A stretch of DNA of 64,000 nucleotides, taken from assembly GCA_010405405.1 (NCBI GenBank), contig MU004230.1, positions 282,627 to 346,626 of the forward strand, written 5' to 3'. Both the position numbers and the translations under genes were made by a program. Source of the DNA: Microthyrium microscopicum. Taxonomy: Eukaryota. The notes beneath the pieces were generated by a model. It made no database searches. It saw only the letters and a program-made list of their open reading frames with translations, and was not told the origin of the DNA. This document shows, in pieces, positions 30,111-33,199 of the stretch. How positions within the stretch are numbered: position 1 is the first letter of the stretch; the number at the start of each line of letters is the position of its first letter.

Positions 30111-30712
30111 AAATTACCCACCCGCGACGGGCATTGAGGTAGCGGGAAGAGAACAGTTCGGACTTGGTAAGTATTGGGAGCCAGGGAGTGCTAGGCGTGT
30201 ACTGTACCTCCCTATCTGCTTGCGCAACTAGTTATGTTAGACTTCTTAGACAAGATTTATAAAAAATCATGCCAATCAATCAAATAAGGAGATGGGCGTT
30301 GCTGCTGTTTAGTTCTGGGATCCTGCATGTGAACAGTTTCGTGTAAGGCTTTTTGGCTGTGTCGCACGGCAGCCAATTTCTCGGCAAAGAGAGGAATCGT
30401 TGTTCTGTATTTCAAGTTTCTTTGATCTTTTTATGACTCCTGTCTTTGTAAGGCTTAATATCAGCAGTGCCGACGATATTGTACTCGAAACTTATTGCTG
30501 CTAGACATGGATAACTGTTGGTTCGTAAGGAGATGAAGTTGGGAGTCTCCTAATCAAGTGACAAGAATGAATTCTGAGCTAGGTTATAGCCCTAACCTTG
30601 GAAACTCTAGCTATCCTGCTATCCACCAATTTCCAAACCACCAAGACCATCTCCAACTTTTGCATCCATTCTCTCACGACCATTTACCTATAACACATAA
30701 CAAGCCATCAAA

Positions 30713-31446
30713 ATGCCGAAATATAAGTACTCCCCACAGAATTCGTCCGAAATATACAGCTAATAGTCTTTTACTCTTCTGTAGGAACTACGCGTAAACA
30801 ACGCCTCGATGTCCGGCTAACATAAATAGGTGACTATTGCGATGTCTATCTCACGCATGACTCCATGAGTGTGCGTAAAGCTCATAACAGTGGTCGTAAT
30901 CATCTCCGTAACGTTGTCGACTATTACCAGCGTACGCGCGTACTTTCCATATTATCGAATACAATCTAACATAGACCAGAAATCGGTCACGAGAAAACCC
31001 AAAGCGTAATCGAATCCATCACAAACTCCTACGCCGCCGCAGGCCAAGCCGACTCGAATCCAATGCTACAAGCGCCTATGGTTGGTCCCGGCTTCCCACC
31101 GCCTTTTCCCTTTCCTGGCGGCCCTCCACCAGGTGGTCGCGGAATGCCTCCCATGCCGTTTGGTATGCCTGGTATGCCTGGTATGCCTGGACAAATGCCT
31201 CCGCTACCACCGAACATGCCTTTCCCGCCCCCCGCAGGAATGCCATTCCCACCTTTTCCTCCCAACGGCTCGCAGATGCCACCCTTCCCTCCTGGAGGAT
31301 TACCACCACCTGGAAACTTTCCATTTCCAATGCCAATCGCGGGATCGCCTGTCGGTGGTCCTCCACATGGTATGGGAGGCCCGCCTCCTGGAATGGGACA
31401 TCATGGACCACCAGGGATGAATCAGCCTCCACCAGGCCAACGATAG
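30713..31446 (+). CDS. YHC1: U1 snRNP protein C (U1-C/Yhc1)
   Basis: Exons 30713-30722, 30775-30780, 30830-30931 and 30980-31446 give [34 protein letters not shown] (matrin-type zinc finger) plus a Pro/Met/Gly-rich tail. Confidence 0.96.
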
Positions 31447-31649
31447 AATCGTTAGTCCTAGGGAGCATGATTTAAGCGAATACAATACGGTTGCATGGAA
31501 GGCGTTGTGAGCTTCGACGGTTTCATCACAGTACATGAAATGTCTTTGCATGGAGTTAAAGACGGATATGACTTTTTACTACTGGATACGGATACCCTAG
31601 CTTTTGTAGTATTACAGAAAAGTTGTGAGTTTACCGTCTCGCTAATATC

Positions 31650-32730
31650 TTATTTTCTGCCTGGTCTTTTTGGCTTTGAGAAGGCTGCTTTTTGTTCTTG
31701 CTTTGGCGCAAATTCTTCAGCAATGAACTTTTCGGTGATTTCACTTGGATCTGTAGCCTCCATCTACCACTGTATTAGCCTTGGTTGCAAAAATGAAGTG
31801 GATACCAGGCTTACCTTCTTTGCCAGGGCAATACCGGCCTCTTTCTCGCACAGCACTTCAGCTGATCGTCTCGAGCTCGCGTAAATCATGCGCTCTCTAA
31901 TCTTTGATGATGATGGACAAGTATAGAAGAAGAGGATCTGGCCGCCCTCATGCGCCCAATACGAATATCGTGGCTCACTGGCATCAATTTGCGATGCCAG
32001 ATTTTCCGCGCTCACGCCCTCGACCACTGGATTACTTGGATCTGCCAATACCACCTCCTCACTCGCATTGATCTTAAGCGTCACGAATCTTCCTGCGCCA
32101 TCTGCCAATTGCTTCAGCGCATCAACAACCCCTTCTCCTGATCCCATCGACTTGCCTCCTGCTGGGCCATACCCTGCACCCCGCCGTCCAGTGCCACCAA
32201 TCTCCGACGCCTCTGCGTCCCTAATGTCGGCCAAATTGCGCTCTTCCTCTGTCAATGGCACGTCCGCTTGTACATGCTTCTCATGTCTTTTCCAGCCTGC
32301 CGCACTCAGCTCCTCTGCCACAGTTGTGAAGAACGTCTCGGAAAAGTGCTCGGTACCCAGCTCGCGCGCTAGTGTCAGCCGCGTGCTGGCAAACAGTGTC
32401 TTTTGGCGCACAGGCGCGGTATCGGGCACGTAGGTGACAGCGGTCAGTGGTGCGGTGCTAGACCCATTGGGTGCGCGTATGAGGATATAGAGTGCTTCGT
32501 TGGGTTGCAAGTGTGTGGCGAGTGCGGAAAGGTCGTCGTAGAAATCGGAGGTGCTAGGGATGGTGCGCTTGGGGACTATAGTCTCACCGTTGATGCTAGC
32601 GAGTAGGGCGCGTGTGCTTGGGGTGGCTAAGAGGTCTTTGAAGGCTTCATGGAGCTCGACAGAGGCTGATTTGGTCAGCAAGGCGCATGACAGACATACA
32701 TGAGCACCGACCTGATATTCCGGACTGCAT
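31650..32730 (-). CDS. TWF1: Twinfilin (two ADF-H domains)
   Basis: MQSGIS start, YVPDTAPVRQKTLFASTR, IRERMIYASS and C-terminal FSKPKRPGRK; two introns. Confidence 0.95.
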
Positions 32731-33199
32731 GATGAGACGCCAGATCTTGTTTGTATGTCAAACTTGGGAGGTGGTTCCAATTCAGCTCTCACGCGAAGAT
32801 ATCAGAGTATCTGAGCAGAGTATTCGTCGAATTGCCCCGAACTGTGGTTCCAAGGAGATAATTGAGCTGCCTTTTATGCTCGATTCACTCGGTGTTGCCT
32901 GGCATGTGCAATCAATGCTAAATTGCAGTCTGCACGTCTACCAAAGAAATCTGACCAAAGCTTCAGTTGGACTATGGAATGGCGTATTCAAACGAAATTA
33001 GAGGCTGGAGAAGTTGAGGCCTGAATCAACGACTCCGGAACTCGAAACTCGCAAGGAAAGAGCTCTAGAGAAGTGGGGCAAGCACGTGATATATTCTCTT
33101 ACAAGGCTGAGTGAGTATAAGGCTGAATGCTCATTGTCTATCGTTGATCTATGAGGCTTTATATTGAGGAGCGAATCTATGTCCATGCTGATATGAAAG

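Follow-up and report, generated by a model that had tools for sequence, protein, structure and literature searches.

The first intron of the U1-C gene in the window (the whole stretch of DNA that we analysed, 64,000 nucleotides) begins with AT and ends with AC, and these termini are real and are used in RNA. The intron is a real new case of a known, very rare intron class, and our search of the literature found no published description of an AT-AC intron in a U1-C gene. We think it likely that it is a normally spliced U2-type AT-AC intron that is old and has no dedicated regulatory role.

The gene occupies positions 30713-31446. The original prediction, made from the sequence alone, had named it U1-C, and this was borne out by its homologues and by its third exon, which matched the Pfam family zf-U1 (PF06220) over profile positions 7-35 with an E-value of 4e-16. 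Since this match begins at profile position 7, six residues should precede exon 3. The features of the gene are as follows.

30713..30722, forward strand: U1-C exon 1, its coding part (ATG CCG AAA T), which stops after the first base of codon 4 (phase 1).
30723..30774, forward strand: intron 1, 52 nt, ATAAGT...TTTTAC, with AT-AC termini and the acceptor TAC.
30759..30764, forward strand: putative branch site GCTAAT in intron 1, with the branch A (30763) twelfth when counted back from the 3' end.
30775..30780, forward strand: 6-nt microexon TCTTCT, which completes Phe4, encodes Phe5 and begins Cys6.
30781..30829, forward strand: intron 2, 49 nt, GT-AG, GTAGGA...ATAG, with a weak-looking donor (GTAGGA) and the branch CTAAC.
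30830..30931, forward strand: exon 3, which encodes the zf-U1 zinc finger with 33 residues, plus one base of the codon after them.
30932..30979, forward strand: intron 3, 48 nt, GT-AG, GTACGC...CCAG, with the branch CTAAC.
30980..31446, forward strand: coding part of exon 4, IGHEK... followed by a proline-rich tail and the stop TAG at 31444-31446, placed from the open reading frame and homologues.

The complete protein was computed to have 194 amino acids; the conserved part of U1-C is nearly invariant among loci, and the tail is of low complexity. Removal of intron 3 gives QQIGHEK, the same as in homologues, and TCTTCT occurs only once in 30713-30840, as the microexon. When we enumerated all one- and two-intron models from the ATG at 30713 with GT-AG, GC-AG or AT-AC termini, MPKFFCDYC was obtained from exactly one of them, the AT-AC model; among the GT-AG models, only that with an intron at 30727-30766 kept the first cysteine of the zinc finger, and it gave MPKYNLLLFCDYC. 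The start codon, exon and intron boundaries, GCTAAT and microexon had all been described correctly beforehand, and translation of the open reading frame confirmed the further statement that retention of intron 1 leads to a TAA at 30761 after 16 codons.

Use of the junction was seen in contigs from X1, a single small run whose RNA label is a guess and which we took as cDNA-like since its contigs bridge introns. A 137-nt contig (0 mismatches) covers 30693-30722, departs there from the genome and matches again over 30830-30930 with 0 mismatches, joining 30722 to 30830 with TCTTCT alone between them. This joint implies the AT-AC intron 1, the microexon and the GT-AG intron 2, and it restores MPKFFCDYC; moving the junction of intron 1 by one base in either direction fails to reproduce the contig sequence. 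The proposal that intron 1 is spliced at AT...AC was thus upheld, and it is this form that the RNA contig carries, not the GT-AG alternative (30727-30766) that had been offered beside it. One X1 contig holds the intron 1 junction, and contigs give no isoform ratios. The X1 contigs showed no retention of intron 1 and no alternative isoform, although contigs cannot prove absence; the stretches that they leave uncovered, 30400-30681 and the intron interiors, were given no weight as evidence on the transcript start, on retention or on the GT-AG alternative. Further along the gene, contig ends left loose at 30931 and 30980 continue across the junction of exons 3 and 4, and X1 contigs cover 30980-31765. 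A 4101-nt contig exits the window sequence at 31765 and picks up the letters of 31817, which indicates that the 51-nt intron of the twinfilin gene is absent from it, and this junction agrees with protein P0121. Twinfilin is the neighbour of U1-C, and its intron likewise has a CTAAT branch; the twinfilin coding sequence matches the protein of Microthyrium microscopicum with full identity, and on this the source was placed as that Dothideomycete. In a cDNA-like contig from an Aureobasidium-like fungus (L070), intron 2 of U1-C was retained and intron 1 was not. A blastn search with the 5' regions found no spliced transcripts of other AT-AC loci among the 80 metagenomic loci described below.

By its donor and branch, intron 1 looks like a U2-type (type II) AT-AC intron, as the original prediction had proposed; a method for classifying such introns is given in PMC1557818. 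The donor ATAAGT equals the major-type consensus except at +1 and is exactly the strong consensus reported for U2-type AT-AC introns (PMC5029451), the branch is ordinary, and the U12 motifs RTATCCT and CCTTRAY have no occurrence in 30700-30840. U12-type AT-AC introns resemble intron 1 in their first and last dinucleotides and in having the branch near the 3' end, but they have a ATATCCTT donor and a TCCTTAAC-like branch, and as both are absent here we rejected that class; of these donor and branch features only the branch distance (12 nt) fits, and GT-AG orthologues have a similarly short one. U12 splicing is reported to be missing in Ascomycota and Pezizomycotina (PMC2846911), and the sequence and this literature together suggest that the major spliceosome removes intron 1. 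Scanned against Rfam, the window matched no family, a result that is uninformative on spliceosome type. We also rejected a stwintron, because an A follows exon 1 and a C precedes the microexon, so that no internal excision puts a G beside either exon, and shifted-junction readings of intron 1 were ruled out by the sequence.

Among 80 U1-C loci from metagenomes, 42 had no intron at the site of intron 1, 25 had GT-AG, seven AT-AC and two GC-AG termini, one had intron 2 only and three were truncated. Aligning U1-C loci in search of AT-AC termini had been suggested with the original prediction, and AT-AC does reappear in codon 4, in the same phase 1, in 7 of the 80 (L050, L051, L052, L056, L061, L063 and L076), which with the window represent five deep lineages; this recurrence and the X1 joint put the observation beyond chance. 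The window and all seven of these loci share the donor ATAAGT, and the hybrid termini AT-AG and GT-AC were found in none of the 80. The end of exon 1 (ATGCCNAAR-T) is kept in all resolved loci, a TCTTYT microexon is present in all two-intron loci, and the donor of intron 2, GTAGGM, is common to the other two-intron AT-AC loci. Intron 1 measures 50-53 nt in the AT-AC orthologues and 50-56 nt in the two-intron GT-AG orthologues, with CTRAY 12-13 nt and 13-14 nt from the 3' end, respectively. Grouping of the 80 loci and the window at ≥97% identity left 62 clusters, of which 6 are AT-AC (window included), 33 have no intron at this site and 20 are GT-AG or GC-AG; in the 26 clusters with a resolvable intron 1, the donor is AT in 6 and GC in 2. 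TAAGT occupies +2 to +6 in 6/6 AT-AC clusters versus 7/19 GT/GC clusters (one-sided Fisher p = 0.0097, for clusters that are phylogenetically non-independent), an enrichment that matches the ATAAGT consensus of U2-type AT-AC introns (PMC5029451).

Placement of the metagenomic loci in classes was by blastp of their short, low-complexity tails, which was clear for L050 (near Rhinocladiella), for L051 (98% to Endocarpon), for the two-intron GT-AG loci (near Leotiomycetes) and for the loci with a single GT/GC-AG intron (near Sordariomycetes), and ambiguous for the L052 group, L076 and L040. Public protein models supplied a second record. Thirteen of 221 U1-C proteins start with MPKY[KM], as expected for read-through of an AT donor, and the eight with species names came from Orbiliomycetes (2), Dothideomycetes (3), a Eurotiomycete (1) and Lecanoromycetes (2), the AT-AC state being deduced in these species from mis-translated proteins and not from DNA. 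The Orbilia brochopaga protein P0247 reads ...LLFC joined to DYC, for which the last base of the intron must be C. Four Penicillium models (P0244, P0249, P0252 and P0256) carry a shifted-frame trace of ATGCCGAAATAT; they were omitted from the AT count, and P0244 was flagged. Named proteins with GT signatures belong only to genera of Leotiomycetes or Sordariomycetes; we checked the class for two of these and take the remaining genera to be placed there too. By DNA or protein signature the AT-AC state is thus found in four classes of Pezizomycotina. Since these are Orbiliomycetes, Dothideomycetes, Eurotiomycetes and Lecanoromycetes, and since GT names fall only in Leotiomycetes and Sordariomycetes, AT-AC is probably ancestral in Pezizomycotina, the group to which the comparison applies and for which we used the NCBI taxonomy as the tree. 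The AT-AC form of intron 1 therefore has the look of an ancient oddity that many filamentous ascomycetes have inherited. In many lineages intron 1 has been deleted or switched to GT-AG or GC-AG, without a visible substitute.

Under the explanation we favour, ATAAGT would be fully complementary from +2 to +6 to both U1 and U6, and the major spliceosome would still recognise it despite the A-C mismatch at +1. The branch would be the ordinary CTAAT, 12 nt before the 3' end of the intron, and at the second step of catalysis A and C, as the terminal bases of the intron, would take the place of the usual G and G; with such a stand-in, the two termini should always change together. Removal of intron 1 and of the GT-AG intron 2 around the 6-nt microexon would then give the start of the zinc finger, MPKFFCDYC. 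The AT-AC state would persist because an essential gene would have to acquire two coordinated substitutions to revert, and the only exits from it would be loss of the whole intron, which is common, or one GT-AG conversion in the lineage of Leotiomycetes and Sordariomycetes. No dedicated regulatory role would be necessary to account for the intron. That it is neutrally "trapped" is our preferred interpretation of its age; selection for a function would also give long persistence in an essential gene.

A selected function was what the original prediction had in mind: a sensor in which the mismatched AT donor ties productive splicing to the level of U1-C or to proofreading of the 5' splice site, and in which retention leads to a premature stop and decay. 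Several observations would suit such a sensor, which we nonetheless regard as unlikely. In human U1 snRNP in vitro, U1-C contacts the backbone of the duplex between U1 and the 5' splice site from -2 to +3, further stabilises 5' splice sites that carry mismatches and changes their relative affinity (PMC4383343). In animals, unproductive splicing auto- or cross-regulates snRNP proteins, among them U1C/U1-70K in human cells (PMC3798272) and U11-48K and U11/U12-65K (PMC5473595), and as in these systems intron 1 combines a recognition-factor gene, an unusual splice signal and a premature stop on failure, here the TAA that follows 16 codons. The donors on both flanks of the microexon (ATAAGT and GTAGGA) look suboptimal, likewise in other two-intron AT-AC loci, and the AT and GC donors make non-canonical donors frequent at intron 1 (8 of the 26 resolvable clusters), while AT-AC is otherwise rare in fungal annotations (PMC7072748). 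The animal systems, however, have a conserved element and an alternative isoform that responds to level, and for intron 1 we found no such element, and no such isoform among the X1 contigs. In an alignment of six AT-AC loci only the donor, the branch and YAC were invariant, with no cis element beyond these core signals, and no significant RNA structure of intron 1 was found (fold z-score +0.75). The factor can also do without an AT-AC intron, as 33/62 clusters have no intron at this site and 20/62 have GT-AG or GC-AG. If U1-C aids mismatched sites, less U1-C would mean less productive mRNA, so that any loop would be positive, whereas homeostasis calls for the opposite sign. The original argument for selection had been the paired change to A and C, seen as two compensating changes. 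To our knowledge, every AT-AC intron needs both termini paired in order to splice; with pairing obligatory, co-variation of the termini would be a catalytic necessity and say nothing of regulation, and as the state is old and inherited, with four classes of Pezizomycotina showing it, it is no recent pair of compensating changes in this gene copy. We give a similarly low probability to the idea that AT-AC has been kept because splicing at a +1 mismatch depends unusually strongly on U1-C, as a self-referential checkpoint that would date back to the first filamentous ascomycetes and might be a converted relic of a minor-spliceosome intron; were this true, the gene would sense how far the U1 snRNP is loaded with U1-C, or its fidelity, before making more U1-C.

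Quite improbable, in our estimate, is an origin in an early fungus as a U12-type AT-AC intron that outlived the minor spliceosome because it turned U2-type in donor and branch and kept its AT-AC ends. Such an origin would fit a state that appears ancestral within Pezizomycotina and a branch 12-13 nt from the 3' end, a distance within the range for U12-type introns. Yet the U12 motifs have left no trace, and GT-AG orthologues have an equally short branch distance, which points to the build of the short intron itself. Because the loss of U12 splicing is older than Dikarya, this history would demand an age for the state far beyond what a comparison within Pezizomycotina covers. The loss of U12 splicing in the lineage (PMC2846911) would otherwise agree with this history, which concerns the origin of the intron, is compatible with our main explanation and treats the GT-AG forms as later conversions.

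That the termini are base errors and the true mRNA uses GT-AG at 30727/30766 (MPKYNLLLFC) or an upstream ATG at 30567 has almost no probability and is already contradicted: the GT-AG alternative is in frame and an 86-codon open frame (30537-30797) continues into LLLFC, but the X1 contig carries the AT-AC form, the same A and C occur in seven independent loci, the alternative leaves the branch A only 3 nt from the intron end and is not conserved (its equivalent in L050 is out of frame), and the zf-U1 profile has space for the six residues ahead of exon 3.

Taken as a U2-type AT-AC intron, U1-C intron 1 can be set beside few others, a count over five species of animals and plants having found 24 of the class among ~610,000 introns (PMC1557818). 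The human genes SCN4A and SCN5A contain such introns (Wu and Krainer 1997, cited in PMC1557818 and PMC6280755), which like intron 1 have AT/AC ends on an otherwise ordinary major-type intron with long-conserved borders; unlike them, intron 1 belongs to a fungus reportedly without the minor spliceosome, and in the window it is 52 nt long and followed by a 6-nt microexon, in a U1-C gene. In budding yeast, an AT-AC intron has been engineered (Parker and Siliciano 1993, cited in PMC5029451), and the RPL30 intron harbours a minor AT-AC isoform, a side product of 1-2% whose donor is unlike ATAAGT (PMC5029451). Both cases indicate that a fungal major spliceosome handles AT-AC if the two ends are changed together, as they are in U1-C. 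The yeast AT-AC splicing is, however, artificial or at 1-2%, whereas the AT-AC junction of U1-C makes the only protein-coding form recovered and is inherited across classes. AT-AC II introns have also been hypothesised in xylanase genes of filamentous fungi (PMC1557818); these come from the same kind of organism and are likewise presumed U2-type, but the genes differ.

Where fungal U2-type AT-AC splicing, as far as PMC5029451 describes it, was previously only hypothesised or a 1-2% by-product, here it gives the only recovered coding form of an essential gene. The association of AT with AC and of GT or GC with AG in orthologues across classes, and the lack of hybrids, is the pattern expected if the two terminal bases of the intron interact during the second step of catalysis. 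The correct N-terminus is missing in 98 of 221 public U1-C models (from two protein sets), many of which are without a zinc ligand, and among hits of 84-270 residues no protein model was identical to the window's exon 4. Gene callers that bar AT-AC junctions or microexons will keep mis-modelling U1-C, with systematic errors in gene models as the result. The U1-C intron also offers a tractable fungal system for the tolerance of a +1 mismatch by the major spliceosome and for the effect of U1-C dosage on its own message.

The + strand of this region carries the gene for U1-C (U1 snRNP protein C) of Microthyrium microscopicum, a Dothideomycete of the order Microthyriales. The translation of 30832-30921 gave the U1 zinc-finger core (Pfam zf-U1, E-value 4e-16), and since this match begins at profile position 7 (positions 7-35 of 38), six residues must come before the part encoded by exon 3. 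Downstream of the ATG at 30713 the sequence reads CCG AAA T and continues with ATAAGT... in place of a Phe codon. When we enumerated all one- and two-intron models from ATG 30713 to exon 3 with GT-AG, GC-AG or AT-AC ends, exactly one gave the conserved zinc-finger start MPKFFCDYC, namely an AT-AC intron 1, a microexon and intron 2:

30723-30774, + strand, intron 1, 52 nt, ATAAGT...TTTTAC (sole MPKFFCDYC model)
30775-30780, + strand, microexon TCTTCT, 6 nt
30781-30829, + strand, intron 2, 49 nt, GTAGGA...ATAG

TCTTCT occurs once within 30713-30840. The sole GT-AG model in the enumeration to retain the first zinc-binding Cys (30727-30766) produced MPKYNLLLFCDYC and placed the branch A three bases from the 3' end of its intron, while retention of intron 1 leads to a stop (TAA 30761) after 16 codons. 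A motif search of 30700-30840 found no U12-type donor or branch motifs. Re-reading of the window sequence and the model enumeration showed all sequence statements of the original prediction on the U1-C 5' region to be correct. An 86-codon open frame (30537-30797, ATG 30567) passes through intron 1 into ...LLLFC and joins exon 3 in frame when intron 2 alone is removed; this frame could lead gene callers to an N-terminally extended U1-C model. A protein search found nothing identical to the window's U1-C exon 4 among matches of 84-270 residues, and therefore this genome's public U1-C model is absent or of very different length.

The gene was present in contigs of one public run, X1, whose RNA label is a guess, and we compared these over 30400-31800. 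A 137-nt contig consisted, as one joint, of 30693-30722, TCTTCT and 30830-30930 with zero mismatches, and thus equals the predicted U1-C mRNA at every base and uses the AT-AC junction (30722/30775) that had been claimed for intron 1. This junction cannot slide, as exon 1 ends in T but intron 1 in C, and intron 1 begins with A but the microexon with T. Loose ends of X1 contigs at 30931 and 30980 cross the exon 3/exon 4 junction, and a 4101-nt contig departs from the window at 31765 and resumes with the letters of 31817 onward, therefore skipping a 51-nt intron in twinfilin, the convergent neighbour of U1-C; public protein P0121 is consistent with this junction. With U1-C intron 3 and the 51-nt twinfilin intron also crossed, the X1 run behaves like cDNA. 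The junction evidence is one contig from one small run, and contigs show presence, not isoform ratios or absence; the X1 contigs listed included no alternative U1-C isoform, an absence that contigs cannot show. The AT-AC intron 1 in the window's U1-C gene is confirmed.

Several further observations came from these contigs. At the exon 3/exon 4 junction X1 has two forms, one genome-like (C at 30931) and one with A at 30931 (contig depth 496, otherwise mismatch-free over 30980-31030), which would turn QQIGHEK into QKIGHEK. The extra A cannot be obtained from the window sequence by moving a splice site. A further variant at about 30993 also has GAA replacing GAG, and low-depth contigs with variants were seen at 31031 and 31045. 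These forms could stem from a mixed sample, from a second copy or allele, or from a change at the RNA level. The 4101-nt contig (31046-31817) runs from U1-C exon 4 through the U1-C 3' end into twinfilin, whose GT-AG intron (51 nt, about 31764-31814) is missing from it; the two transcripts apparently meet or overlap at their 3' ends. The twinfilin gene (31767-32801, minus strand) has two ADF-H domains, and residues 45-329 of its ORF are all identical to a Microthyrium microscopicum protein, with differences confined to read-through of the ORF into an intron.

For orthologous loci, 15 aligned fungal U1-C proteins served as the query against metagenome contigs, and the best 80 of 287 confirmed loci were analysed; in each non-truncated locus a script identified one model, and no other, that restored MPK[FY][FY]C[DE]Y. 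Among these best 80 of 287, 42 had neither intron 1 nor intron 2, 25 had a GT-AG intron 1, two a GC-AG intron 1 (L044, L071) and one intron 2 alone (L070), and three contigs (L041, L053, L077) ended too near exon 3 to call. The AT-AC state of the window was conserved, at the same position, in seven (L050, L051, L052, L056, L061, L063, L076). Intron 1 always lay at the identical phase-1 position after AAR-T, and no locus needed an AT-AG or GT-AC hybrid. The GC-AG loci, which are Sordariomycete-like, have the donors GCAAGC and GCACGT, respectively, so three terminal pairs occur at one orthologous intron.

Clustering of the 80 loci plus the window at ≥97% identity gave 62 clusters, six of them AT-AC (window, L050, L051, L052/L061/L063, L056, L076); since L052, L056, L061 and L063 are 92-96% alike upstream, these represent five deep AT-AC lineages. 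The AT-AC introns measure 50-53 nt and have CTRAY at 12-13 nt before the 3' end; in two-intron GT-AG orthologues intron 1 measures 50-56 nt, its branch lies at 13-14 nt, and the TCTTYT microexon is the same. Judged by their sequences, the two are one and the same intron with both ends swapped. TAAGT at +2 to +6 was found in 6/6 AT-AC versus 7/19 GT/GC clusters (one-sided Fisher p = 0.0097, the clusters being phylogenetically non-independent), and Gould et al. describe the same strong ATAAGT consensus in known U2-type AT-AC introns (PMC5029451). The cDNA-like contig L070 (1-420, Aureobasidium-like fungus) begins 12 nt upstream of the ATG and has lost introns 1 and 3 while keeping intron 2 (GTAGGT..., 56 nt), which would shift the frame; L053, a related genomic contig, has intron 3, and the Aureobasidium protein model P0295 bears an AT-AC trace. 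This single case suggests that removal of intron 1 can precede that of intron 2.

Tell-tale U1-C proteins result from gene callers that are unable to use AT-AC. We sorted 221 public U1-C proteins (P0001-P0120, P0241-P0341) by N-terminal pattern, where AAA T/AT AAG read through gives MPKYK, AAA T/GT AAG gives MPKCK, and skipping of the microexon gives MPKC/DYC.

N-terminal patterns of 221 public U1-C proteins
Correct N-terminus: 123
MPKY[KM], AT donor read through: 13
HS[SF]VG, acceptor-side trace (xAC/TCTTYT/GTAGG): 3
MPKC[KR], GT donor read through: 7
MPKC/DYC (MPKCDYC), microexon skipped: 6
...VFC, AG/TCTTCTGC read through: 10
Beginning at MSVRK, N-terminus given up: 25
Exon 3 (zinc-finger exon) missing: 10
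Remaining: 24 (intron 2 read through in four, shifted-frame trace in P0244, 19 others)

The correct MPKFFC/DYC start is thus missing in 98/221 models; an essential gene is systematically mis-annotated owing to its microexon and its non-canonical intron. Four Penicillium models (P0244, P0249, P0252, P0256) are extended upstream with ...KCRNIC..., a shifted-frame reading of ATGCCGAAATAT, and P0296 reads MPKYM, suggesting an ATATGT donor; these hint at a possible variant AT donor in Eurotiales.

The eight named species with MPKYK protein traces belong to Orbiliomycetes (Orbilia brochopaga, Arthrobotrys musiformis), Dothideomycetes (Saccharata proteae, Clohesyomyces aquaticus, Aureobasidium sp.), Eurotiomycetes (Rhinocladiella mackenziei) and Lecanoromycetes (Xylographa soralifera, Lambiella insularis), and the acceptor-side trace occurs in Polytolypa hystricis (Onygenales). 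The Orbilia model reads ...LLFC/DYC, which requires C as the last intron base. At the DNA level, L050 is closest to Rhinocladiella by BlastP of the protein tail, and L051 has 98% identity over 46 residues to Endocarpon pusillum (Verrucariales). Named GT-type traces come from Trichoderma (3), Colletotrichum, Geosmithia, Nemania, Rutstroemia and Botrytis, all of which we take to be Sordariomycetes or Leotiomycetes (class confirmed in taxonomy for one representative each, Trichoderma harzianum and Glarea lozoyensis), and BlastP of tails from the GT-AG loci (best 80 of 287) gave matches typical of these two classes. Because Orbiliomycetes, with their AT trace, branch outside the clade of all other classes (NCBI taxonomy), the most economical reading, with the state of named species read from proteins and all taxa compared lying within Pezizomycotina, is that AT-AC would be ancestral for Pezizomycotina, with many losses of the whole intron and a single conversion to GT-AG, in the common stem of Leotiomycetes and Sordariomycetes. 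The split between Orbiliomycetes and other Pezizomycotina is several hundred million years old.

At +2 to +6 the intron 1 donor is perfectly matched for major-type pairing, the putative branch is ordinary, U12 motifs are absent, and Ascomycota, Pezizomycotina among them, are reported to lack U12 splicing (PMC2846911); on these grounds the major spliceosome is taken to splice intron 1, and its U2-type AT-AC reading is well supported. The strict co-variation of A with C and G with G fits the interaction that the two terminal bases of an intron make in the second catalytic step, an interaction given as underlying an engineered AT-AC intron spliced in yeast (Parker and Siliciano 1993, cited in PMC5029451) and the U2-dependent SCN4A and SCN5A introns (PMC1557818). 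Once fixed, the AT-AC state would be hard to leave by point mutations, since a reversion at one end alone should stop an essential gene from being spliced, and its long persistence can be explained without any added function.

An added function had been proposed in the original prediction, with intron 1 as an autoregulatory switch sensing U1-C level or splice fidelity. The host gene makes this attractive, as U1-C itself touches the duplex backbone at positions -2 to +3 and finely adjusts how strongly mismatched donors are bound (PMC4383343). Clusters keeping a resolvable intron 1 have an AT donor in 6/26 and a GC donor in 2/26 (best 80 of 287 loci plus window), and the intron 2 donor GTAGGM looks weak in AT-AC loci, which fit relaxed or special selection on donor strength. 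However, neither intron conservation nor folding supports a switch: in an alignment of the six AT-AC loci the donor, branch and YAC alone are invariant inside the intron, and folding of the region is not unusual (z +0.75). Furthermore, 33/62 clusters have no intron here and 20/62 have a GT-AG or GC-AG intron 1 (best 80 of 287 loci plus window). Mismatched sites compete better in vitro with U1-C than without it (PMC4383343); therefore a shortage of U1-C would reduce its own productive splicing, which we infer to be positive rather than homeostatic feedback. We consider it improbable that intron 1 is an autoregulatory switch.

U2-type AT-AC introns are established and very rare, numbering 24 in some 610,000 introns from five animal and plant species according to PMC1557818, where fungal xylanase genes are named as hypothesised cases only. 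AT-AC introns of any type are rare in fungal annotations (PMC7072748), and the sole endogenous case given for budding yeast is an isoform of 1-2% whose donor is atypical (PMC5029451). In the main text of openly accessible papers we found no description of an AT-AC intron in a fungal U1-C gene. What makes the U1-C AT-AC intron notable is the gene that hosts it, its age, the cleanness with which its ends co-vary in nature and the annotation errors it has caused.
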